Positions 7,781 through 28,789 of a DNA stretch of 32,433 nucleotides are shown here, in pieces. Location of the stretch: the NCBI GenBank assembly GCA_038126655.1, contig JAYPGD010000006.1, positions 1 through 32,433 on the forward strand, given 5' to 3'. This DNA is from Verrucomicrobiales bacterium (GTDB taxonomy: Bacteria > Verrucomicrobiota > Verrucomicrobiia > Limisphaerales > JAYPEY01). Both the position numbers and the translations under genes were made by a program. How positions within the stretch are numbered: the stretch's first letter is position 1; every line of letters starts with the position of its first letter. The notes under the pieces are model-generated. The model was given only the letters and a program-made list of their open reading frames with translations, was not told the DNA's origin and made no database searches.

Positions 7781-10513
7781 TCAGTTGACATTCTGGCGAG
7801 GTCGCGTCGTGGGCGGGGTTCCCGGGCGCGACGGAGGCGTTCTTGTGCGTGAGGGCGTGGAACGCGATTGTGGCGCGACGGACCTCGGGGTCGGCCGGTT
7901 GAACGTCGGACGGGACGGAGCCGGCCGCGGCGTCACCGACCTCGGCGTCGACGACGGGGAGGACTGAACGCGGGACTGCGGCGCGATGCGTGCGGGGCTG
8001 GTCGACCGGGTTGGCCGGTTGAACGTGGGGCGCGACGAACTGCGGGTGGTCGGCGCGATGGAGAAGCTTCGTCGCCCGGACGAGGAGGGGGGCGCGACGA
8101 TGCGGCTGGATTGCGACCGTGTTTCGGATTGATTGAGACTGTTGAAGGGCTGTGATTGCGTCCTGAACTGCGTGGAACGCGAGGTCTGGAAACCAGAGCT
8201 TTGTCGGGGGGAGGATTGGGCTGCCGGGCTGGGCGAGACCGGAGCGCGTCGGACAACCGTCCTGGTGGAGGTCGGACGGCTGGGCGATGGAGTGGCGCCT
8301 TGTCTTGTGGTCGGGCTGAAGCTGGGATTGGAGGTCGGCCGATTGGAGATGGAAGGGGCCGCCGATGGGCTTGATCGCCGCGGTTGGCCGGGCGAACGCA
8401 AGATGCTCAATGGCTGGGGCGTCGCCGGCTGTCTGGGCGTGGAGGTCACCGGGGCCGGCGGCGACAGAGGCTTGGGCGCGCTCGGGCCGGTCGCCTGCGG
8501 CCTTGGTGAAGCGGCGGACGAGGTGACCGGACGCGGCGTGGAGGTGACCGGCCTGGCGGCGGACCTGACCGGTTGAGGAGCGGTCAGTGTGCGCGAGGGA
8601 GCCTTGAGCGGCTGCGGCGAGGAGGTGACTGGCCGCGGAGTGGACCGCGCGCCATCCGGCGATCTCGGGACTGTTCTCCTTGCGCTTGTGGTCGATTGAC
8701 CGCCGGCGCCTGTTTGGAACGCCGCGATGCCCTTGGGGAGGGGCTTGGGGCGCTTTCCGGGCAGGGACAGAGCTGGTCGCGCGCCTGACTTGGGGCGTTT
8801 GGTTGCAGAGGAGAGGTTGCTTTTGCCGGATGTTTCCGCCTTGGCGGCTCCGGACCGGCTTCCTCCGACGATCATGCGTTGGGAGGCGGGGGAGGCGCTG
8901 GTGCGGCTGCGATTCAATTCGGAGCGTTCCCGGGAGCCGGTTCGAGCGCCGGCGAGCGTGCGGCCTCCCTTGTCCGCGGCAGCCGCTGCGGCGTCAGACG
9001 AAATCCTGGCGGCCGCGGAAGAACGCGACGTTCCGGTTGTGTCCGCTGATCTACCGCTCCGCCTGCCGGCTTCGCTGGAGCGGTCGCCGGAGCCTTGGCG
9101 GGGGCCGCCGCGGTAGATGGCGAGGTCGGAACCGTTGCGCACGACGCGGTCTGGACGGACGATCGAACGGTTTCCGGCGGGACGGTCGGCGATCTTCACC
9201 CTTCGGATCTCCTGGCGCGAGAGCTTGGCGATTTCATCCTTGGGGACGCCGCTGTTGACGAAGGTCTTCTGCCGGTTCGCGTGATGATGGTTGATCACCG
9301 AGGATTCATGATGGACATGCTGGATGCGGTCGCGAGCGACGAAGTGCCGGTGCGGATGGTGGGAATGGAAATGACGCAGGGGGACGTAGGTGTAGTGATT
9401 CGAGGAGAGTCCCCATTCGAAGTGAACGCCCACGGTCGAATCGTGATAGCTGAAACCAAAGCCGCTGCGGTAGCGGGCTGCCGGGGGCAGGGGAGCCCAT
9501 CCGCAGTAGGCGCTTGAACGTCGCCAACTGACCCAGGCCGGGCCCCAGGTGCGCCCCGGCGTCCAGACCCAGCCATGGAGTGTGTGCCGATGCCAGCGAC
9601 CGTAATGGAAGGGCGCCCAGCCCCAGGAGTAGTCCGACTGCCAATACCAGCCTTGATCCGTGTAGAGCCAGCGGCCGCGGTTGGCGTAGGGGCGCCATCC
9701 GGAATCGATCACCGCCACAGTGGGCTGCCAACACAAGCCGTAGGGCGCGACTTCCACCCAAGCGCCGTAGGGAGCCAGGACGGGCTGGAAATAGGTCACG
9801 GGTTCCGCGACCTCGTAAACGACGGTCTGGGTCTGGACGACGGGTTGTTGGACCGCAACCGTTTGCTGTTCGACCACAACCGGCGCGGGCGCGGCCTGCG
9901 CGACGTTCGGCGTTTCCACGACAACTTGAGGGGCGGTTGTTCCGGCGGGGGAGGCGATGGTTTCCCTTTGCGCCTGCGCCGCCTGGTAATCGGCGACCGT
10001 CTGTTCCGGCGCGGGCGCCTTCTGGATCAGGGCATTGATGACGTCGGTCGAAACGCCGATGTCGGCAAGGTAGATCAGCTCGTCCGCAGTGGGGTGAAAG
10101 GCCGTCGGTGAGTTGTTGATATAATTGAGAATCACCTCGTCGCCAACCTGCGCCTGCGCGAGTTTGACGACCTCGGACACTCCCGGAGACAGCTCGATCG
10201 GTTGAGCCTCGCCCGCGTCCGCTGGCGGGGGAACCGGCGCAACAGGAGCGACAGCAGGCTCAGGTTCCACCGCTGCGGGGTGCGGCGCGGATTGGACGAC
10301 CACAGCGGTCGCGGACGCGACCTCCTGAGGCCGGGTGACGGTCGCGCGGACGCCCCCGGCGTCCTGCTGCGCGACCTGGGGGATCTGCGCGTGTCGATGC
10401 ACCCTGTGCGGAGGATGTGTCGATGCGTATTCGTGATGATGACAGGCGGAGGAAAGCGAGAAGAGACTGACGCCGAGAAGCAGCGCAATTCCTTGGGTGA
10501 CGCGTTTTTTCAT
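7781..10513 (-). CDS. Envelope protein with a W/Y/G-rich YXWGXW-type repeat region and a ~450-aa S/P/T/R-rich disordered tail
   Basis: ATG at 10513. Signal peptide with a possible lipobox (LFSLSSAC). Core region GWRPYANRGRWLYTDQGWYWQSDYSWGWAPFHYGRWHRHTLHGWVWTPGRTWGPAWVSW. The C-terminal half is low complexity with internal repeats (SRPTFNRPT x2, RPVTS[ST]P x3). Confidence 0.8.
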   Translation of the reverse strand: MKKRVTQGIALLLGVSLFSLSSACHHHEYASTHPPHRVHRHAQIPQVAQQDAGGVRATVTRPQEVASATAVVVQSAPHPAAVEPEPAVAPVAPVPPPADAGEAQPIELSPGVSEVVKLAQAQVGDEVILNYINNSPTAFHPTADELIYLADIGVSTDVINALIQKAPAPEQTVADYQAAQAQRETIASPAGTTAPQVVVETPNVAQAAPAPVVVEQQTVAVQQPVVQTQTVVYEVAEPVTYFQPVLAPYGAWVEVAPYGLCWQPTVAVIDSGWRPYANRGRWLYTDQGWYWQSDYSWGWAPFHYGRWHRHTLHGWVWTPGRTWGPAWVSWRRSSAYCGWAPLPPAARYRSGFGFSYHDSTVGVHFEWGLSSNHYTYVPLRHFHSHHPHRHFVARDRIQHVHHESSVINHHHANRQKTFVNSGVPKDEIAKLSRQEIRRVKIADRPAGNRSIVRPDRVVRNGSDLAIYRGGPRQGSGDRSSEAGRRSGRSADTTGTSRSSAAARISSDAAAAAADKGGRTLAGARTGSRERSELNRSRTSASPASQRMIVGGSRSGAAKAETSGKSNLSSATKRPKSGARPALSLPGKRPKPLPKGIAAFQTGAGGQSTTSARRTVPRSPDGARSTPRPVTSSPQPLKAPSRTLTAPQPVRSAARPVTSTPRPVTSSAASPRPQATGPSAPKPLSPPAPVTSTPRQPATPQPLSILRSPGQPRRSSPSAAPSISNRPTSNPSFSPTTRQGATPSPSRPTSTRTVVRRAPVSPSPAAQSSPRQSSGFQTSRSTQFRTQSQPFNSLNQSETRSQSSRIVAPPSSSGRRSFSIAPTTRSSSRPTFNRPTRSTSPARIAPQSRVQSSPSSTPRSVTPRPAPSRPTFNRPTPRSVAPQSRSTPSRTRTPPSRPGTPPTTRPRQNVN

Positions 10514-10794: not shown

Positions 10795-10884
10795 GGAGAG
10801 GTGGCTGAGTGGTTTAAGGCGCGCGCCTGGAAAGCGCGTGCACTGGAAACGGTGTCGCGGGTTCGAATCCCGCCCTCTCCGCCA
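10795..10884 (+). tRNA. tRNA-Ser (anticodon GGA)
   Basis: Acceptor stem GGAGAGG/CCTCTCC. Anticodon stem CGCGC/GCGCG with loop CUGGAAA (GGA). Long variable arm (tgcactggaaacggtgtc) typical of class II tRNA. T-arm GCGGGTTCGAATCCCGC, discriminator G and encoded CCA. Confidence 0.93.
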
Positions 10885-16858: not shown

Positions 16859-17815
16859 TCAGCGCAGCGCGGCCACGCGGAATTCGTGCACCAGTTTGGG
16901 GCGTTCGCCAGCGCGGACGACCCCGGTAAAGTCCCGTGATTTGCCGCGCACCAGCACGCGGACGACGAAGCGCGTGGGATCGGGCGCGCCGTTGCTGCGG
17001 TAGTGATGCACGAACACGCGATACCGGCCGGCCGGAGCGCCTTTCTCGGGCCAGTAGACATTCTCCACCGGTTTCTGGGTGAGCGGGCGCTGGGCGTTGC
17101 GATCGATGTCGAGTTCGCCGCCGGAACGGACCTTGCGGTTGAGGTAGAAGATCTGGTCGCCGCGCGGATCGAAGACGTGGAGGTCGAGATCGTTCACGTT
17201 GTTCCACATGAGCGAGATGCGGATGTCGCCGGAGCGGGCGCCGGCCGCGGCGAGTCGGGCCTCGAAGCTGTCGCTGAGCATGACGATGTTGGTCATGCGG
17301 GGCAGGTCGGCGAGGGTGAGGCTGCCCATGTTTGCATCCATTTCCATGGGGGAGGAACTGCCGGAGTTCTCCGGCAGGGACATCTCGCCCTCGCCGGCGC
17401 GGGAGACGACCTCGCCGGCCATGGCCGCTTTCTGGTCGTTGCCGGGATTGCGTCGGCGATCCGGATTGCCCATGGCGCCGAACTCGATCGCCTGTTCCTC
17501 CTCGAGGCTGGCGGGGCCGGACATCTGGTTGCCAAAGACCGCGCCCGCGCCGCCGCCGGCTCCAGCGCGCAGGGAGGGGAACAGGATCCAGAGAATCACG
17601 ATGGCCAGCATGATCAGGACAGAGGCGGTGGTGATGGTCTTGTCCTGCCAGGGTTTGCGGTATTCGTCGTTGGGATCGAGGCCGTTGTCCGGCAGCGCGG
17701 CGGAAAGGTCGGTGAACTGCAACGGGACGCCGCAATGGGGGCAGTCGACGACGGTCACGCCGGCCTCGTCAAGGAGGTCGATCAATTGTCCGCAACTGTA
17801 GCAGCACTGTTGCAT
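16859..17815 (-). CDS. Zinc-ribbon / TM / DUF2135 (YfaP)-like domain protein (cluster gene 7)
   Basis: N-terminal CYSCG...CPHCG zinc ribbon. TM ASVLIMLAIVILWILF. C-terminal domain ISLMWNNVNDLDLHVFDPRGDQIFYLNRKVRSGGELDIDRN...GRYRVFVHHY matches the DLDLHV...GG.LD.D signature I associate with DUF2135/YfaP. Confidence 0.75.
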   Translation of the reverse strand: MQQCCYSCGQLIDLLDEAGVTVVDCPHCGVPLQFTDLSAALPDNGLDPNDEYRKPWQDKTITTASVLIMLAIVILWILFPSLRAGAGGGAGAVFGNQMSGPASLEEEQAIEFGAMGNPDRRRNPGNDQKAAMAGEVVSRAGEGEMSLPENSGSSSPMEMDANMGSLTLADLPRMTNIVMLSDSFEARLAAAGARSGDIRISLMWNNVNDLDLHVFDPRGDQIFYLNRKVRSGGELDIDRNAQRPLTQKPVENVYWPEKGAPAGRYRVFVHHYRSNGAPDPTRFVVRVLVRGKSRDFTGVVRAGERPKLVHEFRVAALR

Positions 17816-17821
17816 GGCAGA

Positions 17822-18760
17822 CTAAAGTGGCGGGGGCGGGGGCGCGCCGCCGCCAAATCCCATCATGATGCGGGCGTCGTCTTCCAGCGGCGCCCAGGAG
17901 AGTTCGACGCCGAGGCGGCTGGCCGCTTCCTTGGCGATGTTGAACTGGCCGAAGGAATCGCCATAGACGCGGAAGACCAGATAGGCGTTTCGCGGGAGTT
18001 GTTTGTAGTAGTTCAACAGGCCCCGAAGATTGTTGGAGGGGTCGACGCCCTTGCCGGGGACGGGGCTGAGTTCACGGAGGTCCTGTCCGGCGGTCTGGAG
18101 TTGGATCATGCCGCTGTTGAAGCCGCTGGAGGCTCCTCGAGCGTAGAGTTGCACGGGGTAGATCCGGCCATAGCGGACGAGGATCTCCACGGGTTCCTTG
18201 GAGGTCTCGTGCTCGCGGGGGAGGCGGAGTTTGCGGACCCGTTGATTCATTTCCTGGGTCAGGCGCTTCTGGAGGTCGTCGAGTTCCGCGGCGAGTTCGG
18301 CATTGCGCTTTTGTTCCTCCTCCTCCTGTTTGGCCATCAATTGGTTCTCGGCTTCGCGTTCCTTCTTCATCTGCTCCATCTGCTCGACGGATTCCGCGGT
18401 CTGGACCAGTTCTTCCTGGGCGGTTTGCAGTTCCTTCTTCAAATCGTCGAAGGCGTCGGCGACGTCTTCGCGTCGTTCCAGCAGTTTGATCTGTTCGGAG
18501 CGGCCGGGGTCGCCGAGTTGGGCGGCGAGCTTCTGATTGAAGATTTGCGCCTGGTTCAGCTCCTCCTTCGCCTGTTGCAGCTTCTTCTCCAGCATTTCCT
18601 TCGCCTTGATGTCCGCTTCGGTGACCGTCTTCGCTGTTTCCGAATCACGCGCGATCAAGGAGATCAGCAGCGCGATCAGGATGATGCCGCCAAAGAGGTT
18701 GCACATCGTGTCGAGCAACATCTCAAGACTGTCGGACTGTTCTGGCAGGCGGCGGGGCAT
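17822..18760 (-). CDS. ExbD/TolR/MotB-like protein with coiled-coil spacer (cluster gene 6, paralog of gene 5)
   Basis: N-terminal TM with an embedded Asp (LEMLLDTMCNLFGGIILIALLI, D17). About 150 aa of heptad-like charged helix (EELNQAQ..., KKELQTAQEEL...). C-terminal globular region AYLVFRVYGDSFGQFNIAKEAASRLGVELSWAPLEDD resembles an ExbD-type periplasmic domain. Confidence 0.72.
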   Translation of the reverse strand: MPRRLPEQSDSLEMLLDTMCNLFGGIILIALLISLIARDSETAKTVTEADIKAKEMLEKKLQQAKEELNQAQIFNQKLAAQLGDPGRSEQIKLLERREDVADAFDDLKKELQTAQEELVQTAESVEQMEQMKKEREAENQLMAKQEEEEQKRNAELAAELDDLQKRLTQEMNQRVRKLRLPREHETSKEPVEILVRYGRIYPVQLYARGASSGFNSGMIQLQTAGQDLRELSPVPGKGVDPSNNLRGLLNYYKQLPRNAYLVFRVYGDSFGQFNIAKEAASRLGVELSWAPLEDDARIMMGFGGGAPPPPPL

Positions 18761-18913: not shown

Positions 18914-19765
18914 TTACCGGTTTCCTGCGCCTGGCGTGTCTCCGAACATGAGTAGTTTGTCTTCCTCGATGGCGTCGTAGCCCACGGTGAAGCCGGCTTC
19001 AAGGGCCTTGGCCTTGCAAAAATTGAACAAGCGGATGCCGGAGGGGCGGACGTAGAAGACGAGGTGGGCAGCCTGCGGATTCCACTTGCGCATGGCGGTG
19101 AGGAAATCGCCCGGGGCGGTGGAGCCCTTGAATTCCATCTTGGTTTCCGGCGCCGCGAACTTCTCCACACTGGCGCCGTCCTTGGACACGACGATCATGA
19201 GGTTGTCCTTGGTCTGGGGTGTGTTGTCCGGGATCAGCCAGAGTTGGTTCTTGGCGCGGATGATGGATTCCATGCGCTTCTTCATGTCGAGAACGGTGGT
19301 CTGCATGTTCTCGTTCTCGTCCTCGAGTTCGCTCAGGGATTCCTTCTCCTTGTCGTTCTTGGTCAAGCCGAGTTGCGCGGCGAGGGCGGCGGCTTCGAAT
19401 TGCTTGTGCTGGAGTTTCTTCTGCGTGAGTTCCAGTTCGCGTTTCACGTCGCTGACCTGCCGTTTGATGGTGTCGATCTCCTGGTCGAGGCGTTCGGTGT
19501 TCGGCGCGGAGGCGGCGTCGGTGAGCAGCATTTGCCGGGCCTTGTTCTCCGAGTTGACCCGACTCAGTTCCTCCAGGATTTCGTTCAACTCGGTCATCAA
19601 CGGATCCTCCCGTGTGCCGTCGCCCTTGGAGAAGGCGGAGGGATTGTTGATGAAGAGCGTCAGAATGAGTGTGACGAGGATCAGGATGCCGGTGATCGCC
19701 GTAATGATATCCTGAAAGGCAAAGAAACTGACCTTCTGGGCGGCGATTTTGCGACGACGGGCCAT
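18914..19765 (-). CDS. ExbD/TolR/MotB-like protein with coiled-coil spacer (cluster gene 5)
   Basis: N-terminal basic stretch, then a TM with an embedded Asp (FFAFQDIITAITGILILVTLILTLF, D19). Long charged helical region. C-terminal AHLVFYVRPSGIRLFNFCKAKALEAGFTVGYDAIEED aligns with the C-terminus of the 17822-18760 product. Confidence 0.72.
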   Translation of the reverse strand: MARRRKIAAQKVSFFAFQDIITAITGILILVTLILTLFINNPSAFSKGDGTREDPLMTELNEILEELSRVNSENKARQMLLTDAASAPNTERLDQEIDTIKRQVSDVKRELELTQKKLQHKQFEAAALAAQLGLTKNDKEKESLSELEDENENMQTTVLDMKKRMESIIRAKNQLWLIPDNTPQTKDNLMIVVSKDGASVEKFAAPETKMEFKGSTAPGDFLTAMRKWNPQAAHLVFYVRPSGIRLFNFCKAKALEAGFTVGYDAIEEDKLLMFGDTPGAGNR

Positions 19766-19955: not shown

Positions 19956-20924
19956 TCAGCCTTTTCTTTCGCCCCCTCCGTGGTCCTCATGATCATGCCG
20001 CTCGAGGCGGAGTTTGGACATGATATGGGAGTGGCAGTAGTCGTTGCACTCGTCAAGGAAGGCCGTCTCCTTCTGCTGGATGAAGGTGATGGCAAGCTGG
20101 ATGATCAGGGCCAGCACCAGCGCCACAAGCGTCGTTTCAAACGCCGAGGCCAGGCCGCCTGTGACTTCCTGAAGGCTGCCCTTGATGGCGTTCAGATCGT
20201 CGGAGGATTGCAGGGTGTTGGTGAACCCGCCAATGGCCAGGCTGAGTCCGCGCACCGTGCCGATGAAGCCGATGACCGGGATCGACCACACCATGCCGTT
20301 GACCAATGTGAAGCTGGAAGCCATCTGGTCCTCGTCGTTTTCCGCCTGCGACTTGATGATCGTGGACACCTCGGTGATGCCGCCGAGGTTGCTGAGATTG
20401 CTCAGGGCGCGCTCGATGCGGTTGAACAACACGAAGTGCCGCGGATGGTCGACGAGGTTGTGGATGCGGTTCAGCACGGTCTTGGCCGTGGCCTCGGTGA
20501 TGACGAAGTCGGCCTGCTGGGGCACGGCGGTCAGGTCCAGCGCCTTGGCCTGGAAGGACACCTTGCGCGACTTCAGGAACAGGATGGTGATCGACCAGAA
20601 GAAGAAGAAGGCGCAGGGGCCGGTGAACCAGGTGTTGTCCTTGCGGATCAGCGGCAGGGTGAACTTGTGCGCCGAGTCGATGGGATCGAGCGCGAAGACG
20701 ATCAACGCGAAGAAGGCCGCGGTCAGCGCCATGGCGAGCACGAAGCTCAGGACCTTGTTGACGTTGCTGTAGCGGCCGCCGCGAAAGAAGCCGAAGCGGT
20801 TCTCAATGTCCTGTTCGATCCAGCTCAGGCTCTCGACGCCCTTGGTCGAAATGTCGTCGATGGGCGAGCGTCCCGCTTTGGTTTGTTTCTTTGGTGAAGG
20901 TTCCATTTGTTCATCCGTGTCCAT
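19956..20924 (-). CDS. MotA/TolQ/ExbB-family proton channel protein (cluster gene 4)
   Basis: Four predicted TMs. Family signature IPVIGFIGTVRGL (compare the ExbB/TolQ LGLLGTVxGI) followed by GLASAFETTLVALVLALIIQLAITF (compare GIAEAL..T..GL). 322 aa, with no long C-terminal tail. Confidence 0.88.
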   Translation of the reverse strand: MDTDEQMEPSPKKQTKAGRSPIDDISTKGVESLSWIEQDIENRFGFFRGGRYSNVNKVLSFVLAMALTAAFFALIVFALDPIDSAHKFTLPLIRKDNTWFTGPCAFFFFWSITILFLKSRKVSFQAKALDLTAVPQQADFVITEATAKTVLNRIHNLVDHPRHFVLFNRIERALSNLSNLGGITEVSTIIKSQAENDEDQMASSFTLVNGMVWSIPVIGFIGTVRGLSLAIGGFTNTLQSSDDLNAIKGSLQEVTGGLASAFETTLVALVLALIIQLAITFIQQKETAFLDECNDYCHSHIMSKLRLERHDHEDHGGGERKG

Positions 20925-20933
20925 CCGTGGTTG

Positions 20934-21482
20934 CTACTTCATGGCAAAGCCGCGGCCGTCGCGCCAGACGAAGATGACTTCGATGGCGGGCCAGAAGCCG
21001 AGCCAGAGGGTGGTCCAGCCGAGTGATACGAAGGTGAGCGCAATCGCAATCTGCAGGGCGCCGATCAGCCAACGGCTCGCGTAGAGGTTGTGCAATCCCA
21101 AACCGACGCCCGCGTAGACCAAGGCTGCGGGGGCTTCGGCGGCGGCGAACAAGGCGATGATCAGGCTGAGCGCGGGATAAAGCAGGCCGACCGTCGCGTA
21201 GGCCATGCGCCAGCGGCGGGAAAGTCCTCGGGCCGCGGCGGTCGTTGCGGCTTCCTCTTCAGCTTCCGGCGTGGGAAGGACAATCGCCTTTCGTTTGAGC
21301 GCGCGGGAGATCTTGCCGGTGGCGTCGATGAATTCCCGGAGTGTGACCCAGCTGCCTTCATGCTGGATCTCGTGCCAGAGGCCGATTTCGTGCGCGTCCA
21401 GCCTTTCCTCAATGTCCGCAATGCTGAAGTCGCCGGTCTCCCGGCCGCGCCAGCGCATCGGATAGGTGGGCGTATCGGTCAT
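20934..21482 (-). CDS. GYF_2 (DUF4339)-like domain protein with four TM helices (cluster gene 3)
   Basis: ATG at 21482 overlaps the upstream stop (ATGA). The N-terminal W-x-G...G-FS...L...I...W-x-L-EF pattern (MRWRGRETGDFSIADIEERLDAHEIGLWHEIQHEGSWVTLREFI) is typical of bacterial GYF_2 domains. Four hydrophobic helices follow. Confidence 0.72.
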   Translation of the reverse strand: MTDTPTYPMRWRGRETGDFSIADIEERLDAHEIGLWHEIQHEGSWVTLREFIDATGKISRALKRKAIVLPTPEAEEEAATTAAARGLSRRWRMAYATVGLLYPALSLIIALFAAAEAPAALVYAGVGLGLHNLYASRWLIGALQIAIALTFVSLGWTTLWLGFWPAIEVIFVWRDGRGFAMK

Positions 21483-24451
21483 TCGACGAAAAGTTGGGGG
21501 AGGTATTTCGGATTCTCAGCGACGTCCGGGTCGTAGCCCGCGGAGCCGGCAATGATGCGGACGAGTTTCTGTCGATCGTCGGGAAACACGAACAGGGGGG
21601 AGAAAGGCAGCGGTTGGCGGACGGTGGAGTAGTCCCGGGCGGCCTGGTCGTAGCGGTAGATCAGGGCGGGACGCTTGGTCTCGCCGGCCCAACCCCAGAG
21701 TTCGCCGAGATTCATCGCGGCGTCCGCGACTGCGGTGGGTATCTTTGTGTCGGGGTCGACGTAGCCGACGAACTGGAAGCCGCCCTCCGCGGCGCGGGTG
21801 GTCAGCTTGTGCAGGAAGACGGCCTGCTTCTTGATCTCCACCTTGGACGCCTCGTTGAAATAGGCCGCCATCGGCGCGGTGAAGCGTTGGATGCGCTGCG
21901 GCACGATCCAATCGCCGGGTTGGATGTCGAGCACGCCCTGGTCGAGCAGTTTCTTGCGGAGCGGCTTCAGGGCCGGCGCCCATTGCAGGGCGAAGCTGTC
22001 CGGGCGGACATCCGTCAATTCGAAGAGACGTTGCAGCAGGTAGGCGCGAAAGACGGGGTTGGCGGTCTTGTCGCGGTGCAGGCTGTCGATGAGTTCGAGC
22101 ACGCCGGTCGTGTAGCTGGAATCGGTCCCATCGGCCAGGGCTGCTAGTCCGGTCTCGACGAACAGCTGTTTCTCCGGCGAGGGCCCCTGTTCCTCGAGGA
22201 CAAAGTCGGCTTCGGGAAACTGACGGTTCTCAAAGCGAATTTCATCAGGGGAGACCGCGGGGTCGTAGGCGTCGCCGGCGGGACGGCCGAATTTGTCCTT
22301 TTCGATTTCGCCGCGGATGTAGATCACGCGCGTGCGGTCCGGATCGGTGGTCGGTCGCTTCTTCTCCAGGATGCGGATGCGGGTCAGGGTGTTGAGGGAT
22401 TCGTCTTCGGCCAGCAGGCTGAGCGCGGCGCGTTCGGCCGCGGAAACCTGGGAGGGCGACTCGACCAGGGGAGCCTTGTTCTCGATGGTCCCGCGGATGC
22501 CGTCGTTCTTCCAGGCCAGGAGGTCGTGGATCATGTCCGGGATCTGCGGGTTGGCCGCGGTGACCTCGCGGGAGCGTCGGACGTTCTCAATCGGGGCGAA
22601 ATCGCTGGTCTGGAACTGCCGCAGGGTGGAGACGAAGTTGGGCAGGGTGTCGGGATCGGCGAGGCTCTTCTGAACCGTCTCCCAGGTTTCGATCTTGCGT
22701 TTGAATTCGTCGAATTTCCGGTTCAGGGCCTGAAAGCGGAAGGTGAGTTCGGAGGTGACCTTGAGTTCCTCGAGTTGCGGCGAGGCCAGGGCCTGGAGGA
22801 CGGGGAGATTGGCCTCGATCTCCTTCAGTCCGGCGCGGATGGCGTCTTCCCCCTTCTGGAGATCCAGTGAATCGCCAGCGATCTTCTCGACCTTGTACAG
22901 TTCCTCGCCGAAGCGCGCGCTTCGGGCCTCGCGTTCCCCGAAGAGCCAGGCTTCCCATTGATTGCGGCATTCAATGAGGCGGTCCTCGACGTCCGGCGCA
23001 AAGTCGGCCGCAACGGCCTGTTGGAGCGCCTCCGCCTCGGCGAAGTGCTTCAGATATTGCTCCGGCGAGAACTCGACGAAGCCGTCCTCGCCCTGCTGCA
23101 GGATCCAGAGGGCCTTCTCCTCGGCGAGGCGGCGGATCTTGTCTTCGCGTTCGATGAAGGAATTGGCCTTGGCGAGCGCGGCGTTGAGGCTGGGGATGGC
23201 AAGGAGGTTGACGTCGTTGGTGACGATCTGCTCGCGGAAGCGATGCGCTGCGACCGGTTGACGTTGGCGGCCGTATTGTTCCAGTTCGGCGGCGAGTTGA
23301 TTGGCCCGTCGATTGGCTCGGACGATGGTGACCGCGGCGATGGTGACGGCCATGACAATCAGGGTGACGGTCACCAACGCCAGCTTGTTCATGCGCTCCC
23401 GTTGGCGCACCTGGTAGCGGACCAACCGGAAATATTTGTCGAACTTCTCCTCGAACTCCTCGGGGACGGCGCGTTCGAAGCGCTGAAGCTCCTGCCATTT
23501 CTTGGCCAAGGCCTCGAAATCGGCTCTAAGTTCCGCCACGGGGCGTCTGCGGACGGCGAGGTATTTTTCCTCGCAGACATTGATGATGTGCTGCAGTTCG
23601 CCGAACGCCTTCTTGTAACGCCGGTCTTCCTCGGTTTCCTCGGCTCGTCGCTTGATCCATTCGCGGGCTTCCCTGAGCGCGCCGAGTTCCTTCTCGTCGA
23701 GATCGAGCTGAAACTCGGAGCGCAGCGTGTCCACGCGGTCGGCGACCTTGCGGGCGTCTTCCCAGCGGTCCTTGTCGCGGAGTTCGGCGAGTTGTCGCAA
23801 TCGGGCGCGGACGCGCACGGTTTGGGCGCGGCGCCAGAGATCGAGATCCTGGCCGGGGGAGAATTCCAACCGTTCCAGGGCCGCGAGAATTCCCAGGGTC
23901 GCGCCCTCGTCGTCTTTCTCCACGGCGGCTTCGAGCTTCTCCAGACGCGCGCGCGCAAACTTCTTTTCCAGGCGGGCGGCTTCCGCGGCGGCGTCGGCAT
24001 TGTCCGGCTTCAGCCGTCCGATCAACCTCAGGATGGCCAGGGCGCGGTCGTCGCGCCCTGACAGGATGGCCTGGCGATAGTCCCGGTAGAGCGGGTGCCC
24101 GGCGTCGATGTCCTTGGAGAATTCCTCGTTCAACGCATGGACGTGGTCGTCGTTGAAGGCCTTGGGGACCGGGTGGTCCTTGCCTTCGCAGTGCGTCCGC
24201 CATTGGCGTTCCTCGCGGAATCCGAGAACGGAGATCATGTCCAGCGCGGCCGGCGCGGCTTCGGCGAGATGGAGTCCAGCGGCGACCTGGCCGCCGCGGA
24301 TCAGCGCCACGGATTGTTCAAGACGCAGGTTGACTGCTCGGCAGACCTCCGCGTATTCGCGAGCCAGCTTGAGATCCTGGAACTGGCGTCGCGGATCGCC
24401 GAGTGAATCGACAATCTGCTGCACCAGGCGTCTGGCTTCGGCGATATCCAT
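21479..24451 (-). CDS. 990-aa bitopic protein: ~355-aa helical/charged N-domain, single TM, ~610-aa C-domain (cluster gene 2)
   Basis: ATG at 24451, 5 nt after the upstream stop. The N-terminal region is rich in Arg/Glu/Leu helices. TM LALVTVTLIVMAVTIAAVTIV covers residues ~356-377 (nt ~23321-23386). I recognise no family motif. Confidence 0.8.
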   Translation of the reverse strand: MDIAEARRLVQQIVDSLGDPRRQFQDLKLAREYAEVCRAVNLRLEQSVALIRGGQVAAGLHLAEAAPAALDMISVLGFREERQWRTHCEGKDHPVPKAFNDDHVHALNEEFSKDIDAGHPLYRDYRQAILSGRDDRALAILRLIGRLKPDNADAAAEAARLEKKFARARLEKLEAAVEKDDEGATLGILAALERLEFSPGQDLDLWRRAQTVRVRARLRQLAELRDKDRWEDARKVADRVDTLRSEFQLDLDEKELGALREAREWIKRRAEETEEDRRYKKAFGELQHIINVCEEKYLAVRRRPVAELRADFEALAKKWQELQRFERAVPEEFEEKFDKYFRLVRYQVRQRERMNKLALVTVTLIVMAVTIAAVTIVRANRRANQLAAELEQYGRQRQPVAAHRFREQIVTNDVNLLAIPSLNAALAKANSFIEREDKIRRLAEEKALWILQQGEDGFVEFSPEQYLKHFAEAEALQQAVAADFAPDVEDRLIECRNQWEAWLFGEREARSARFGEELYKVEKIAGDSLDLQKGEDAIRAGLKEIEANLPVLQALASPQLEELKVTSELTFRFQALNRKFDEFKRKIETWETVQKSLADPDTLPNFVSTLRQFQTSDFAPIENVRRSREVTAANPQIPDMIHDLLAWKNDGIRGTIENKAPLVESPSQVSAAERAALSLLAEDESLNTLTRIRILEKKRPTTDPDRTRVIYIRGEIEKDKFGRPAGDAYDPAVSPDEIRFENRQFPEADFVLEEQGPSPEKQLFVETGLAALADGTDSSYTTGVLELIDSLHRDKTANPVFRAYLLQRLFELTDVRPDSFALQWAPALKPLRKKLLDQGVLDIQPGDWIVPQRIQRFTAPMAAYFNEASKVEIKKQAVFLHKLTTRAAEGGFQFVGYVDPDTKIPTAVADAAMNLGELWGWAGETKRPALIYRYDQAARDYSTVRQPLPFSPLFVFPDDRQKLVRIIAGSAGYDPDVAENPKYLPQLFVE

Positions 24452-24456
24452 GGCAA

Positions 24457-26409
24457 TCAGGTCAGTTTCAAATCCGGCTCCATTTGCGCGAGCAGCCAGA
24501 GCAGCGGAGCGTCGACGCCGGTCGGCTCCATGCGCGCCGGATCCGGGGCAAGGCGTTCGTTGTCAATTCGTGTCGGGGAATGGCCGAATGAGCTGGCGGC
24601 GAAGTAGCGGACTTCCGAGGAAATCGATTCGGCGGCGGCGACGATCTTGGGGCAGGTCTCGCGCAGCAGGTCGCGCAGTTTGTCCGAATTGGCGTCGATG
24701 GCCTCGAGGTCGAGACGCTGGTCCGCGATGACGGGCTTCTGGTCCTGCCCGGAGAAGGCGTTCGACCAAGCGTCGTGTTTGCCGACGACCAGCGCGAGCG
24801 GGGTGTCGAGTTTGCGGTCGGGGGAAAGCTTGAGATGCCGCTGGGCGCGTAACAGCGTCTCCGCCAGCAGGGTCTCCTGCCGGTCGAGCGGCTTGCCCGC
24901 GGATTGCGGATCGACCTGGCCGTTGAGGAGTTTCCGGAAGTTGGAATTGCTGAAGGGATCGAACAGATACAGGAGTCCGGCCGCGTGCGCGATATGTTGC
25001 GTCCCGGGTGAATCGGGGGTGTCGGCGCCGGGCAGGAAGTCGGAGCCCTGGTTGTCGAAGAACGCGAGGGAGAAGGGGGCGAATGCCCGCGCGGGGGAGC
25101 TGACACGGCCAACGAAGGGGCGCGGCAATCGGACCATGCGACCGTAGCGTGAGACCGAATCGTAGGAGCCGTCGTCAACGACGGTCGGAGGGATGTGTGC
25201 TTCTTCCGGAGATCTGGCGCTGGCCAACGCGCGTTGCCGGGCGTTGATGGCTTCGTTCGATTCCGGATCCGCGTCCTGCAGGCTGATTTCGAACTCGCGG
25301 TGCAGCGTCTCCGGCAGGCTGCGGAGCAGGGCGGAGAGATAGTGGGATTTGCCCGAACCGACGTCGCCGATCAGGGGGATCATGCGCTGGGGCATTCCGA
25401 CAAATCCCGCGGGGAGTCGACGATGGCAATGCGGACAGGCAAGGTCGGGGCAGGGGAGGCTGAATTCATCGAGCGCCAATCCTTCGTCGTTGAAGCGCGT
25501 CGGCAGGAATCGTTTGGCCGCTGTTTCTCCGAGCAGCGGGTCGCCGCGCAGCGAATCATGAACTGCGATGTGCAGGATGTCTCCCGCGTCGAAACGCAGC
25601 CAGCAGGACGGGCACTGGAGCGGGCCTTGGTCGGGAAGCGCGGCGGGCGCGTCGCGCTTGAGATCCTCCCAGGTCACGTGGATCTCCTCGGTCGGTTCAG
25701 GCGCGGCCGGAGCGGCCGGCGTGGCGACCGGGATGCCGACCGGCACGGCCTCGGTTCCGTCGGATTGCGCGGGCGCCGCCGTGGGAATCGGAGGGAGATT
25801 GGATTCAGATTCCTGTTCGGAAAGGATCACCGGGGTGATCACCTCGGCGGCGGGAATGACGAATACGGTCCCGCCCTCGTCTTCCCCTTCGATATCGACG
25901 TCCGGGAAATCGTCGTCGGCAAAGGCGAAGTCATCCGACGCGGGTTTGCCGCTGCCGTCGTGGCCGAATTCATCCCAGAGATTCTGCAGATGAAACCCGG
26001 CTTTCACGCCCATGGGGCGGACGGCGGAGCGGTGGTGGCGTCGGTTCTCGCGGGCGACGCGGCAGAGGTTCAGCGCGGGCATGGGGCCGTCGCGCGCCTC
26101 GGTCATGGAGTCCTGCAGGAACCACTTGGTGTGATCCAGTCGCGAAAGCCAGGTCTCGAGATTCTTGCCGCCGCGCAGGGCGATGAAATGTCGGCCCACC
26201 TTCACTGCGTAATCCTCGCCCAGCGCGAGCTCGGTGTAGTTGACGGCCTCGCCGTTGACGAGGAGTTGGGAGCCGGGGCGCTTGTTGGTCAGGCTGACGC
26301 CGAAGCCCTTGAGCAGCTTGAGTTCGCAGTCGATCCCCTCCTCGCCGTCGCCCAGGTCCAGATCCGCGCCCGCTCCGCAGCCTATGTTTAAGGAGTTCTT
26401 GTACGCCAA
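24457..26409 (-). CDS. Divergent FHA / GYF-like / zinc-ribbon / P-loop GTPase protein (cluster gene 1)
   Basis: Residues 1-80 have an FHA-like topology (GSQLLVNGEAV...LGEDYAVKVGRHFIAL) but lack the canonical GR and SxxH residues. Residues ~95-147 are GYF-like (WFLQDSMTEARDGPMPALNL...). An acidic and then Pro-rich linker follows. CPSC...CPHC cysteine pairs are at residues 266-328. G1 is GDVGSGKS (nt 25345-25368), G3 is FFDNQG, G4 is VVGKHD and a G5-like AASS is present. The start codon is TTG at 26409 with no in-frame ATG nearby, so the start is uncertain. Confidence 0.78.
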   Translation of the reverse strand: MAYKNSLNIGCGAGADLDLGDGEEGIDCELKLLKGFGVSLTNKRPGSQLLVNGEAVNYTELALGEDYAVKVGRHFIALRGGKNLETWLSRLDHTKWFLQDSMTEARDGPMPALNLCRVARENRRHHRSAVRPMGVKAGFHLQNLWDEFGHDGSGKPASDDFAFADDDFPDVDIEGEDEGGTVFVIPAAEVITPVILSEQESESNLPPIPTAAPAQSDGTEAVPVGIPVATPAAPAAPEPTEEIHVTWEDLKRDAPAALPDQGPLQCPSCWLRFDAGDILHIAVHDSLRGDPLLGETAAKRFLPTRFNDEGLALDEFSLPCPDLACPHCHRRLPAGFVGMPQRMIPLIGDVGSGKSHYLSALLRSLPETLHREFEISLQDADPESNEAINARQRALASARSPEEAHIPPTVVDDGSYDSVSRYGRMVRLPRPFVGRVSSPARAFAPFSLAFFDNQGSDFLPGADTPDSPGTQHIAHAAGLLYLFDPFSNSNFRKLLNGQVDPQSAGKPLDRQETLLAETLLRAQRHLKLSPDRKLDTPLALVVGKHDAWSNAFSGQDQKPVIADQRLDLEAIDANSDKLRDLLRETCPKIVAAAESISSEVRYFAASSFGHSPTRIDNERLAPDPARMEPTGVDAPLLWLLAQMEPDLKLT

Positions 26410-26449
26410 GGCATGGGATCACGAAACACAGTCGTAGATGGCCCAGGCA

Positions 26450-26480
26450 ATTTTTTCAGACAACGTCGACATGAATTCAA
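26450..26480 (-). promoter_or_regulatory. Weak sigma70-like promoter candidate for the cluster
   Basis: On the minus strand, TTGAAT (26480-26475), a 19-nt spacer, then TGaAAAAAT (extended -10-like, hexamer at 26455-26450), about 40 nt upstream of the TTG start. The spacing is suboptimal and promoter rules for this lineage are unknown. Confidence 0.2.
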
Positions 26481-26684
26481 AGGCGTCTCAGCGCGGCAGG
26501 AAGGTAGAACCGAAACGGTTGCGGGGCAAGGAGAAGGAGGCGGGGCGGAATGGGTTCCGAGGGGCGGACGAACGCTCAACGTTCAAATTTAAGCTCGCAA
26601 CGTCAAACTGACCGGACCCTTGGGTTTGAAGTTGAACGCAAAGCGGTTGACGCTCGTCTTCTGCGCGGTGCGCGCCGACTTTCC

Positions 26685-28475
26685 TCAGTGATATTCCTGC
26701 ACGGTCTTCACTGAATAACCGTTTTTGCGCAGGGCGGCGATGCCTTCGGCGACGGCCTTGGCGCTGCTGAGCGTGGTCATGATCGGCGTGTTGGTGTAGA
26801 CCGCCGTCGTGCGGATCTTGACTTCGTCGGCGCGGGGCGACTGGCCTGAAGGCGTGTTGACCACGAGTTGCAGTTCGTTGTTCTTGAGGAGGTCGAGGGC
26901 ATTGGGGCGGCCTTCGGAGAGTTTCATCAACTTGCGGACCTTCAGTCCCGCTTCCTCAAGCGTCTTGGCCGTGCCGCTGGTGGAGACGATTTCGAAGCCC
27001 AGGTCCGCGAACATCTTCGCGATTTCGGCGACGTGCTGTTTGTGCATGTCGCTGACGCTGATGAAAATGCTGCCCGAATCCGGCAGCGCGGAGCCGGCGG
27101 CCATCTGGGATTTGGCGTAGGCGATGCCGGCGTCGGCGTCGAGTCCCATGACCTCGCCGGTGGAACGCATTTCGGGGGAGAGCAGGATGTCCTGGCCGTG
27201 GAAGCGGTTGAAGGGGAAGACGGATTCCTTGACCGCCCAATACTTGGGCCAGATCTCGTCGGTGAATTCCAGTTCCTTGAGCGTCTTGCCGGCCATGACC
27301 TGGGCCGCGAGTTTGGCCAGCGGGCGGCCGATGGCCTTGCTGACGAAGGGCACGGTGCGCGAGGCGCGGGGATTGACCTCCAGCACGTAGACGACATCGT
27401 CTTTCACCGCGTATTGCACATTCATCAGACCGATGACCTTGAGTTCCTTGGCCATGGCGTGCGTGTATTCGCGCAGGGTCTGGATGGTCTTCTCGGAAAG
27501 CGTGTGCGGCGGCAGCACCATGGCCGCGTCGCCGGAATGCACGCCGGCGAATTCGACATGCTCCAACATGCCGCCGACCACGATGGTCCCGTCGTCCGGA
27601 TTGTCGAACCTGCCGACGTCAGCGATGCAATCGACGTCGATCTCGGTGGCGTCTTCAAGGAACTTGTCCACGAGCACGGGGCGTTCGGGCGAGGCCTCGA
27701 CCGCGTAGCGCATGTATTCGTGCAGTTCGGAGTCGGAGTAGACGATCTGCATGGCGCGACCGCCGAGGACGAAGGAGGGGCGGACCAGCACGGGATAACC
27801 GAGGCGTTGGGCGTGTTCGATGGCCTCCTCCTCGTTCACGGCCAGGCCGTTGGGCGGCTGCGGGATCTCGAGCTTGTCGAGCATCGCGGCGAAGAGCTTG
27901 CGGTCCTCGGCGAGTTCGATGCTCTGCGGGGAGGTGCCGATGATGTTGACGCCGTTGGCCTGGAGGCCGAGCGCGAGGTTGAGCGGGGTTTGTCCGCCGA
28001 ATTGCGCGATCGCGCCCCAGCAGTTCTCGCGTTCGTAGATGTGCAGGACATCCTCCAGCGTGAGCGGTTCGAAGAACAGCTTGTCGCTGGTGTCGTAGTC
28101 GGTCGAGACGGTCTCCGGGTTGGAGTTGACCATCAGGGTCTCGAAGCCGTCGTCCTTCAACGCGAAGGCCGCGTGCACGCAGCAGTAATCGAATTCAATG
28201 CCCTGGCCGATCCGGTTGGGTCCGCCGCCGAGGATCATCACCTTCTTCTTGTCGCTCGGTGTGATCTCGTCGTCGCCGCGATCGTAGGAGGAATAGAAAT
28301 AGGGCGTGTAGGCCTCGAATTCCGCGGCGCAGGTGTCGACGAGTCGATAACTGGGCACGAGGCCGGCGGCCTTGCGTTCGGCGCGGATTTCGTCCTCGGT
28401 CCGGCCGGTCAGATGGGCGATCTGCTTGTCGGAGAATCCGAGGGATTTTGCTTTGGCTAAGAGTTCTTGATCCAT
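26685..28475 (-). CDS. carB: Carbamoyl-phosphate synthase large subunit, C-terminal half only (carbamoyl-phosphate synthetic ATP-grasp plus MGS-like allosteric domain)
   Basis: LAKAKSLGFSDKQIA (end of the oligomerisation domain), VMILGGGPNRIGQGIEFDYCCVHA, ATP-grasp motifs (VLVRPSFVLGGRAM, VLEVNPRASRTVPF) and the MGS-like tail (IFISVSD...VSTSGTAKTL). ATG at 28475 (MDQELL) preferred over the track start at 28574. There is no room upstream for the N-terminal ~500 aa. Confidence 0.9.
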   Translation of the reverse strand: MDQELLAKAKSLGFSDKQIAHLTGRTEDEIRAERKAAGLVPSYRLVDTCAAEFEAYTPYFYSSYDRGDDEITPSDKKKVMILGGGPNRIGQGIEFDYCCVHAAFALKDDGFETLMVNSNPETVSTDYDTSDKLFFEPLTLEDVLHIYERENCWGAIAQFGGQTPLNLALGLQANGVNIIGTSPQSIELAEDRKLFAAMLDKLEIPQPPNGLAVNEEEAIEHAQRLGYPVLVRPSFVLGGRAMQIVYSDSELHEYMRYAVEASPERPVLVDKFLEDATEIDVDCIADVGRFDNPDDGTIVVGGMLEHVEFAGVHSGDAAMVLPPHTLSEKTIQTLREYTHAMAKELKVIGLMNVQYAVKDDVVYVLEVNPRASRTVPFVSKAIGRPLAKLAAQVMAGKTLKELEFTDEIWPKYWAVKESVFPFNRFHGQDILLSPEMRSTGEVMGLDADAGIAYAKSQMAAGSALPDSGSIFISVSDMHKQHVAEIAKMFADLGFEIVSTSGTAKTLEEAGLKVRKLMKLSEGRPNALDLLKNNELQLVVNTPSGQSPRADEVKIRTTAVYTNTPIMTTLSSAKAVAEGIAALRKNGYSVKTVQEYH

Positions 28476-28789
28476 GGTGCCGTCAGGGGAAAAACAAACG
28501 GCGCGAAGTAAGCCTGAAAGCGGGGGAAGTGTCGAGCGCTTTGCGTTGGATCGGTCGGGTTTCGACTGATTCAAGCGGGGCGCGATTGCAACTGGGGGGA
28601 GCGCGGTTGTGTCCCGTCTTCGGGACCAGCCGCAGGGACTTGGGGATCGGATTCGCGCGCGGCCAGACCTGGACGCCGGCGCTTTGCTGCGCTGCTGCGG
28701 CTGGTCTCCGAAACAGCCGCGCTCCGTTCACCTTGCCTTGTCCCGGTTCCAATCACGTCCGTTCAAGTGTCAGTGTTTGCCGGCGCGAT

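Follow-up and report, generated by a model that had tools for sequence, protein, structure and literature searches.

In the 32,433-nucleotide stretch of Verrucomicrobiales DNA analyzed here (GenBank assembly GCA_038126655.1, contig JAYPGD010000006.1; hereafter, the window), the minus strand holds an open reading frame at 24457..26409 that encodes 650 amino acids (aa) if it is read from a TTG codon. The plus-strand reading of the same interval was rejected, as its translation is full of stops. The frame heads an operon of predicted membrane proteins, and its product joins an FHA-fold domain, a GYF-like segment, a linker predicted to be disordered, a four-cysteine module and a GTPase domain. Sequence comparison places the gene's family within DO-GTPase2 (Kaur et al. 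2020), as a divergent branch. Operon features lie on the minus strand; GTPase motifs and other short motifs are numbered for the 650-aa form, and conservation refers to an alignment of 76 homologs that are 30 to 99% identical.

The C-terminal part of the protein (24469..25395) is, on the evidence of motif conservation and a structure model, a TRAFAC GTPase fold with inserts and with its predicted nucleotide-binding motifs intact. All of the sequence motifs listed in a preliminary description made from the letters alone are present at the residues assigned to them there, and the GTPase motifs follow the canonical order: G1 at 25345-25368 (GDVGSGKS, aa 348-355, including K354), G3 at 25045-25056 (DNQG, aa 452-455, including D452), G4 at 24772-24783 (GKHD, aa 543-546) and a G5-like AASS at 24589-24600 (aa 604-607). 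To these we add the G2 switch-I threonine, T409 (25183-25185), which had gone unlisted. Invariant across the homologs are the G..GKS of G1, the switch-I Thr, the Asp and Gly of DxxG and the Lys and Asp of GKxD, together with four cysteines and the Trp after the first Cys pair; given this invariance, the motifs are not chance occurrences. The G1-G3 and G3-G4 spacings, previously put at about 100 aa each, measure 104 and 91 aa. A Foldseek search of the modeled block against the Protein Data Bank (PDB) returned only TRAFAC GTPases among its top 50 matches, including aEF1A/EF-Tu, atlastin, Ras, Rag, G-alpha, Arl and GBP; normalized to the length of Ras, the TM-score to that protein was about 0.65. 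A profile of the whole protein searched against PDB sequences gave nothing meaningful.

Directly before the P-loop lies a putative zinc-binding module (25405..25626) composed of CPSCW (CPSC, aa 266-269), 55 residues and CPHC (aa 325-328), modeled with a predicted local distance difference test score (pLDDT) above 90. These are the two Cys pairs that had been noticed ahead of the Walker A motif; besides the cysteines, W, L, D, G and R residues of the module are invariant across the 76 sequences. The insert between the pairs carries the near-invariant motif HDSLRGDP.LG...RF.PTRFN and makes the module more than a minimal ribbon. Shorter relatives have a second, classical zinc ribbon in front. In an AlphaFold2 model of an intact 671-aa ortholog (mean pLDDT, 81.7), two ordered blocks, residues 9-170 and 280-671, are separated by residues 178-273 with a pLDDT below 50. 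The corresponding linker in the window (25654..25941) is acidic at first and then rich in Pro and Ala; the acidic tract (aa 159-180) and the Pro-rich tracts (aa 205-213 and 231-239) of the preliminary description fall within this region of predicted disorder.

At the N-terminus, residues 9-102 of a 671-aa form of the protein (26167..26448) have, according to model and profile, an FHA fold that lacks the phosphothreonine pocket. An AlphaFold model of the N-terminal 176 aa (pLDDT, 89.4) matched FHA domains exclusively among its top 50 PDB hits in Foldseek, including those of FhaA, GarA/OdhI, Ki67, KIF13A, YscD and EmbR; for FhaA, GarA and OdhI, target-normalized TM-scores were 0.72-0.78, with root mean square deviations of 2.1-2.9 Å over about 100 residues. 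A profile of the FHA-GYF module found the FHA domains of KIF13B (E = 2.1e-5) and KIF13A (E = 1.5e-4) as its best matches among PDB sequences, and in a search of 1.84 billion representative sequences it reached multi-FHA proteins at about 1e-10, with FHA confirmed by Pfam at 8e-66. Single orthologs fall just below the Pfam FHA (PF00498) cut-off, at 19.3 versus 20.7 bits. When the family is aligned by HMMER to the iGRG...GVSrrH of FhaA, the pocket Arg is replaced by Ser, Ala or Gly (by Cys in the window, within IGCGAGADL, aa 9-17), the Ser by Ala or Glu, and the His position holds His or Asp; the window clade, which reads EEGID at the Ser-x-x-His site, has lost the His in addition. The suspicion of a degenerate FHA N-terminus is borne out in both respects, fold and missing residues. 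Non-canonical FHA domains, such as those of KIF13A/B and YscD, work as phospho-independent interaction modules. The resemblance extends to the residues of KIF13B, whose aligned sequence, like the window family, has other residues (IGS..., PEH) at the canonical Arg and Ser positions, and the cytoplasmic FHA domain of the type III secretion protein YscD is among the structural matches; however, these are unrelated proteins in unrelated contexts, and the window clade differs from them in the further loss of the His.

The segment after the FHA fold (25963..26136) is probably a small GYF_2-like domain, an assignment that lies below the Pfam threshold. It includes WFLQDS (aa 96-101) and DGPMPALNL (aa 107-115); W, GP, L, G and F residues are conserved, and the predicted topology is beta-beta-alpha-beta-beta-alpha (strands at model residues 113-120 and 127-131, a helix at 133-142, a strand at 150-154, a short strand, and a helix at 162-169). 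The isolated segment matched a single Pfam family, GYF_2 (PF14237), in six of nine orthologs, the highest score being 20.2 bits (E = 5e-4) against a gathering score of 25.8 bits; the fragment from the window clade, scanned alone against Pfam, did not match GYF_2. A profile of the segment detected no GYF chain among PDB sequences, GltJ included, and no GYF match was seen in the structural search with the N-terminal model, whose top matches were dominated by the FHA half. The earlier reading of this segment as GYF-like is probable: the predicted topology and the conserved residues fit it, and GYF_2 is the sole family matched, at scores below the Pfam cut-off.

Among the 1.84 billion representatives, the FHA-GYF tandem is uncommon (270 clusters at E ≤ 1e-3, of which 77 reach E ≤ 1e-10), and among the matches listed, the complete ones are mostly the N-termini of 570- to 710-aa proteins of the window's GTPase family. 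One such relative, P0112, carries a TIR domain ahead of an otherwise identical FHA-GYF-zinc ribbon-GTPase architecture and is 37% identical to the window protein across the zinc ribbon and GTPase. The tandem also precedes an ABC transporter (P0102) and an AAA+ ATPase (P0141). Within Verrucomicrobiota the fusion is not rare, contrary to its first description as unusual: 44 of the 91 GTPase loci fetched carry the module, and a classical zinc ribbon occupies its place in the remaining loci.

The TTG start, judged from comparison with orthologous sequences, is an artifact. TTG is the first start-type codon downstream of an in-frame TGA at 26419-26421, which stands 12 nucleotides upstream of it. 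The preliminary description held that no alternative ATG was available, but an in-frame ATG lies at 26470-26472, 17 codons before the TGA and 63 nucleotides upstream of TTG, where it opens MSTLSEKIAWAIYDCVS and runs into the stop. The nearest orthologs (P0001-P0004, 82-99% identical) are 670-671 aa long, that is, 650 plus 21, and begin at the equivalent ATG with MST(L/S)(S/T)EKIAW. At the site of the TGA, every ortholog reads GGA, a codon for Gly. Upstream of the ATG, by about 30 nucleotides, is a promoter-like motif (26501..26540) consisting of CCTTCTCCTTGC(C), also written CCTTCTCCTTGCC, 17 nucleotides and TACCTT, which is kept in orthologous loci whose proteins are about 66-84% identical; a promoter and terminator scan using an E. 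coli-type consensus was uninformative and did not call it. Together, the upstream ATG of the orthologs, their Gly at the TGA site and the conserved upstream motif indicate that the true gene spans 24457..26472, a run of 671 codons that opens with the ATG at 26470-26472, is closed by a TGA at 24457-24459 and is interrupted in the window by the in-frame TGA at codon 18. The start was misassigned to TTG because this premature TGA breaks the upstream frame. In the structure model of the ortholog, the 21 residues upstream of TTG carry the first FHA beta-strand and lead into the second. In a separate case, gene calling has cut short the N-terminus of P0005, a database entry whose 644 aa begin at MADKNPF; the equivalent ATG and the IAWAIYDCVSG strand are present upstream of its called start, at positions 8248-8310 of its locus (L007).

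The TGA at codon 18 belongs to a cluster of seven substitutions in 43 nucleotides (26379..26421), seen against two independent contigs that are otherwise 99.7% identical; the two assemblies, which encode P0001, share 99.65-99.70% DNA identity with the window. Six of the seven alter the protein (Gly to stop, D to Y, P to S, F to L, T to N and S to C), the five amino acid changes besides the stop fall at conserved positions, and five of the seven substitutions are G>T or C>A. Recoding of TGA as Gly or selenocysteine was considered and rejected. TGA is an ordinary stop in the window, where it ends 11 of the 15 confident genes, so recoding does not explain codon 18, and GGA becomes TGA by a single substitution. 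Behind the premature TGA lies either an error of sequencing or assembly (local consensus) or a lesion of recent date; the clustered, mostly G>T and C>A changes look compatible with a local consensus or oxidative-damage artifact. If real, the stop would shorten the product to 650 aa and truncate its FHA domain.

DO-GTPase/GAP1 systems were defined computationally as conflict systems by Kaur et al. 2020 (PMC7159879), who described DO-GTPases as TRAFAC GTPases with a conserved Walker B glutamate and one or two N-terminal zinc ribbons. The systems frequently have transmembrane (TM) partners, verrucomicrobiae are among the host phyla, and GYF-domain partners are mentioned in planctomycete systems (PMC7159879). 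The preliminary description had pointed to conflict-system GTPases without naming a family, and that link proved sound: 73 of the 76 homologs match DO-GTPase2 (PF19993) at E ≤ 0.01, with P0012, P0014, P0016, P0018 and P0021 scoring 27.2-30.7 bits (gathering score, 27 bits), and in related loci the gene directly downstream of the GTPase encodes GAP1-N2 (E = 1e-18 to 1e-24). Like DO-GTPases, the window protein is a TRAFAC GTPase preceded by a zinc ribbon-like Cys4 module and accompanied by TM-rich partners. It differs from them in lacking the Walker B Glu (DNQGSD rather than DNAGEH), the PF19993 match and a GAP1 gene in its operon, in having an FHA and GYF-like module instead of the usual first zinc ribbon, and in being linked with two single-pass proteins that bear an Asp and with a MotA/ExbB-like protein, an association that goes unmentioned in the text and supplement of PMC7159879. 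MotA, ExbB and TolQ are not mentioned in that text or in the examined supplement. Within the set of papers searched, Kaur et al. 2020 was the one relevant to GAP1-N2 and DO-GTPase, and no experimental test turned up.

Searching by tblastn, we found no GAP1-N2 in the window or in the loci of its clade with 10-kb flanks, where the remaining operon is kept; the GAP1-less clade includes orthologs down to 64% identity. The second protein of the operon, 990 aa long, was considered as a diverged or fused GAP1 and rejected (hhalign probability, 0.1; no GAP1 domains in Pfam). Walker B reads LAFFDNQGSD in the window and DN[QGA]G[SAGD]D throughout the GAP1-less clade, compared with DNAGE[HT] in 80 of the 82 loci outside it. 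By the canonical G3 motif, DTAGQE in Ras, the lost Glu would correspond to the catalytic position Gln61. The same residue is presumably the conserved Walker B glutamate of PMC7159879. The closest outgroup, P0010, has an equivalent FHA-GYF module and a long Pro-rich linker and retains both DNAGEH and GAP1-N2. Since P0010 keeps GAP1 and the Glu and the window clade has neither, both were lost on one branch, and this joint loss suggests that GAP1 and the Walker B Glu work together. With the GAP1 gene and the Glu gone, the switch of the window clade probably hydrolyzes GTP in a different manner or at a slower rate, with no dependence on GAP1. The idea that the long Pro-rich linker compensates for the loss of GAP1 was rejected, because the linker of the GAP1-bearing P0010 is equally long and even richer in Pro. 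Two orphan loci from Chthoniobacteraceae encode an FHA-GYF-zinc ribbon-GTPase with intact DNAGEH; the downstream genes are for a xylose isomerase-like TIM barrel, a glycosyltransferase and an integrase in one (L076) and for ATP synthase subunits in the other (L054).

The rest of the operon encodes proteins with predicted TM helices in every case. The 990-aa protein (21479..24451), conserved with the GTPase and without a Pfam match, divides into a helical N-terminal part of about 350 aa, one predicted TM helix (residues 353-380) and about 610 aa of C-terminal sequence. The next genes encode a 182-aa membrane protein (20934..21482), the ortholog of TM2-domain proteins in related operons, and a channel protein of the MotA/ExbB/TolQ family (19956..20924; PF01618, E = 2.5e-10, 40.6 bits versus a cut-off of 22.9). 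From the GTPase gene onward, these genes are spaced by a 5-nucleotide gap, a 4-nucleotide overlap and a 9-nucleotide gap. Next come two single-pass coiled-coil proteins with an Asp at the start of the TM helix, which we call B1 (18914..19765; SFFAFQDIIT, Asp in 29 of 31 orthologs) and B2 (17822..18760; LLDTMCN, Asp in 28 of 33). An Asp at the start of the TM helix is a hallmark position of ExbD, TolR and MotB, and the pattern suggests that B1, B2 and the MotA-like protein could form a 5:2 motor with a heterodimeric B pair. The last gene, beginning 6 nucleotides after B2 (16859..17815), encodes a 318-aa protein with an N-terminal CxxC...CxxC and one TM helix, again without a Pfam match.

Two side observations concern these partners. 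The 318-aa zinc-ribbon-type single-pass protein recurs at the end of 15 of 89 related loci, all with motor genes, and the N-terminus of the 182-aa TM2-type protein (MRWRGRETGDFSIADIEERL...GSWVTLREFI) looks GYF_2-like by eye, with no Pfam match at E ≤ 0.1.

Related loci share the order GTPase, GAP1-N2, a single-pass protein of about 975-1000 aa and TM2, followed in part of them by MotA, B1 and B2. Among 89 non-duplicate loci, GAP1-N2 was counted in 78, the ~990-aa protein in 73, the TM2-type protein in 50 and MotA with B1 and B2 in 27, all of which are lower bounds, since many of the loci are cut by contig ends. The Opitutae-type loci end at the TM2 gene. One locus (L049, 11212-13791) has a short GAP1-N2 fragment with B1 and B2 directly after it, without the 990-aa, TM2 and MotA genes, and is a rearranged or degraded variant. 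The family occurs in at least 560 species-representative genomes, nearly all labeled Verrucomicrobiota, and relatives of the GTPase span Opitutae, Verrucomicrobiales, Limisphaerales, Chthoniobacteraceae and Akkermansia. In Akkermansia glycaniphila (locus L078), the core of GTPase, GAP1 and 990-aa genes is present.

We favor, with moderate confidence, the view that the gene product is the cytoplasmic nucleotide-switch subunit of a membrane-embedded multiprotein system conserved across Verrucomicrobiota. In the proposed mechanism, the N-terminal third would serve as an adaptor, in which the pocket-less FHA and the GYF_2-like domain are tethered by the disordered acidic and Pro-rich linker. Binding and hydrolysis of GTP would alter the contacts that the zinc module and the FHA and GYF adaptors make with cytoplasmic portions of the membrane proteins encoded alongside, namely, the single-pass protein of 990 aa, the TM2 protein and the channel of MotA/ExbB type. 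The GTPase might thereby gate a motor of the MotA/ExbB type driven by the proton motive force, with B1 and B2, two different Asp-bearing single-pass partners, playing the part of ExbD/TolR.

The closest functional parallel that we found is the Agl-Glt machinery for focal-adhesion gliding in Myxococcus xanthus, a candidate for something that works in a like manner. There, MglA-GTP binds GltJ at the linker between its zinc ribbon and GYF domains, GltG has cytoplasmic FHA domains, and the motor is composed of AglR5 and two different TolR-like subunits, AglQ and AglS (PMC11761067). Common to both toolkits are a Ras-like GTPase, a linker predicted here to be disordered, one or more FHA domains, a MotA/TolQ-type channel and large single-pass proteins, as well as a zinc ribbon, a GYF domain and two different TolR-like subunits, these last three being putative in our case. 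The arrangement differs, in that the FHA, GYF, zinc ribbon and GTPase are fused here in one soluble protein, whereas in Myxococcus they are spread over MglA, GltJ and GltG; moreover, a TonB-C-like domain, outer membrane components and an MglB-like GAP were not identified in the window system. A bolder extension, which we hold to be possible and rather doubtful, is that the verrucomicrobial "DO-GTPase/GAP1 conflict system" is a vertically inherited envelope machine, in which a GTPase with FHA, GYF and zinc ribbon adaptors gates a proton-driven MotA/ExbB-type motor with two TolR-like subunits, independently reinventing, in fused form, what MglA-GltJ/GltG-AglRQS does in myxobacterial focal adhesions, with the window clade as a natural experiment. 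If this were true, the deletion of GAP1 together with the replacement of the Glu in that clade would mark the Glu as a GAP1-dependent catalytic residue.

Several observations weigh against the nucleotide-switch interpretation that we favor. The window protein itself does not match PF19993 at E ≤ 0.1; its sole family match is to DO-GTPase1 (PF19975; E = 0.017, 14.8 bits). The PF19993 matches of its relatives center on the signature Walker B region, and the loss of that region accounts for the missing match. The losses of GAP1 and the Glu took place in one clade, as a single evolutionary event with no independent replication, and two orphan GTPase genes that stand without adjacent partners have retained the Glu. 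Gene order is what ties the GTPase to the motor, and the core is joined by MotA, B1 and B2 in just 27 of the 89 loci; this count, together with the Opitutae-type loci that end at TM2, means that the motor may be an accessory. B1 and B2 showed no homology to ExbD, TolR, MotB or ZorB in searches against Pfam, NCBIfam and PADLOC, so their assignment to a heterodimeric 5:2 motor, for which the TM Asp pattern speaks, is provisional. The Agl-Glt parallel is one of domain repertoire; no homology to Glt or Agl sequences turned up, although no search was aimed at it.

The strongest alternative, though an unlikely one in our estimation, is that the gene encodes the regulatory GTPase of an anti-phage or abortive-infection conflict system, setting a threshold for membrane-acting effectors, with a MotA/ExbB-like module used as in Zorya. 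A role in conflict is what Kaur et al. 2020 proposed for every DO-GTPase/GAP1 system, and the family was defined on that footing (PMC7159879), which speaks for this alternative, as does the TIR-fused P0112 with its FHA-GYF-zinc ribbon-GTPase architecture. One related locus ends with a GYF_2 plus bPH_2 gene, GYF partners are on record for planctomycete systems (PMC7159879), and the MotA-like protein weakly matches ZorA in PADLOC (best E = 4.5e-7). Those ZorA matches are confined to the shared MotA/ExbB core, however, and the PADLOC scan, which otherwise returned a weak DndF P-loop match, gave no ZorB, ZorC, ZorD or other Zor component; what was matched is generic MotA/ExbB homology. Zorya, Tol, Ton and Mot systems resemble the window operon in having a MotA/ExbB channel, here above the PF01618 cut-off, and partners with a TM Asp, and they differ in that no OmpA-type peptidoglycan-binding domain was found here and the two distinct coiled-coil B subunits are without detectable homology to ExbD, TolR or MotB. 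Synteny of the operon also extends over many verrucomicrobial orders and at least 560 genomes at species level. Downstream of the GTPase, gene content stays constant, and no variable effector genes were seen in the 89 loci. Pfam matched no FNIII-repeat component in the window operon or in those related loci that were scanned, where one GAP1 protein has Ig-type domains (Ig_3 and I-set). The window flanks hold housekeeping genes (the C-terminal half of carB, a hexapeptide transferase, a metallo-beta-lactamase-fold hydrolase, an esterase, an aminotransferase, T2SS-F and a sulfatase) and no recognized mobile-element genes.

It is less probable still that the gene is decaying or inactive in the window, with the stop and the adjacent radical substitutions real and the switch defunct in this organism. 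The in-frame TGA and six further substitutions in 43 nucleotides, which hit conserved residues such as the PF of PF.IG, would fit such decay, and so would the absence of GAP1 and the Walker B Glu. Yet the other 650 codons are 99% identical to those of intact orthologs, with no further stops or frameshifts, and the downstream genes are intact. The GAP1-less, Glu-less state is common to orthologs down to 64% identity that keep all of the other GTPase motifs, which argues that it is under selection, and the clustered, mostly G>T and C>A changes relative to two independent assemblies look artifactual. The third alternative, that the C-terminal P-loop domain is an AAA, ABC or KAP-type ATPase, draws on weak single-sequence matches to the P-loop (AAA_22, E = 0.043; Hda, E = 0.013; DndF, E = 0.03) and is effectively refuted by the structural search, in which the top 50 matches were all TRAFAC GTPases, by the invariant switch-I Thr, DxxG and guanine-specificity motif [G]KxD in canonical order, and by the DO-GTPase2 matches of its relatives. 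An ABC or AAA-type ATPase is what the preliminary description had named as refuting its own reading.

Elsewhere in the window, carB (26685-28574, minus strand) comprises the C-terminal half only, beginning in the oligomerization domain, and the upstream open reading frame is an unrelated hexapeptide transferase, which suggests a split carB. The fragmented carB as a sign of an error-ridden assembly was not supported, given that this upstream frame is a separate gene. Within the carB-like gene, positions 27306-27333 show 4 mismatches in 28 nucleotides relative to locus L010, the remaining 5.2-kb overlap being almost identical. A tRNA gene at 10795-10881 on the plus strand (RF00005, 59.9 bits) is the sole Rfam match in the window, and an NCBIfam scan gave nothing informative.

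In the reading that we prefer, a nucleotide switch serving a membrane-embedded system, the family as such was known from computational definition, and what the window adds is the FHA-GYF adaptor fusion, the association with a putative motor, and the joint loss of GAP1 and the Walker B Glu. The FHA-GYF adaptor replaces the first zinc ribbon of the family, and the module recurs behind a TIR domain and ahead of ABC and AAA+ proteins. The simultaneous loss of GAP1 and change of the Glu in one clade offers a direct hypothesis for how GAP1 acts on the GTPase. Akkermansia, in which relatives of the GTPase occur, is a genus for which genetic tools exist. The syntenic verrucomicrobial branch ties the DO-GTPase/GAP1 core, in part of its loci, to what may be a motor of the MotA/ExbB type, and this raises the question, "are these defense systems or envelope machines?"

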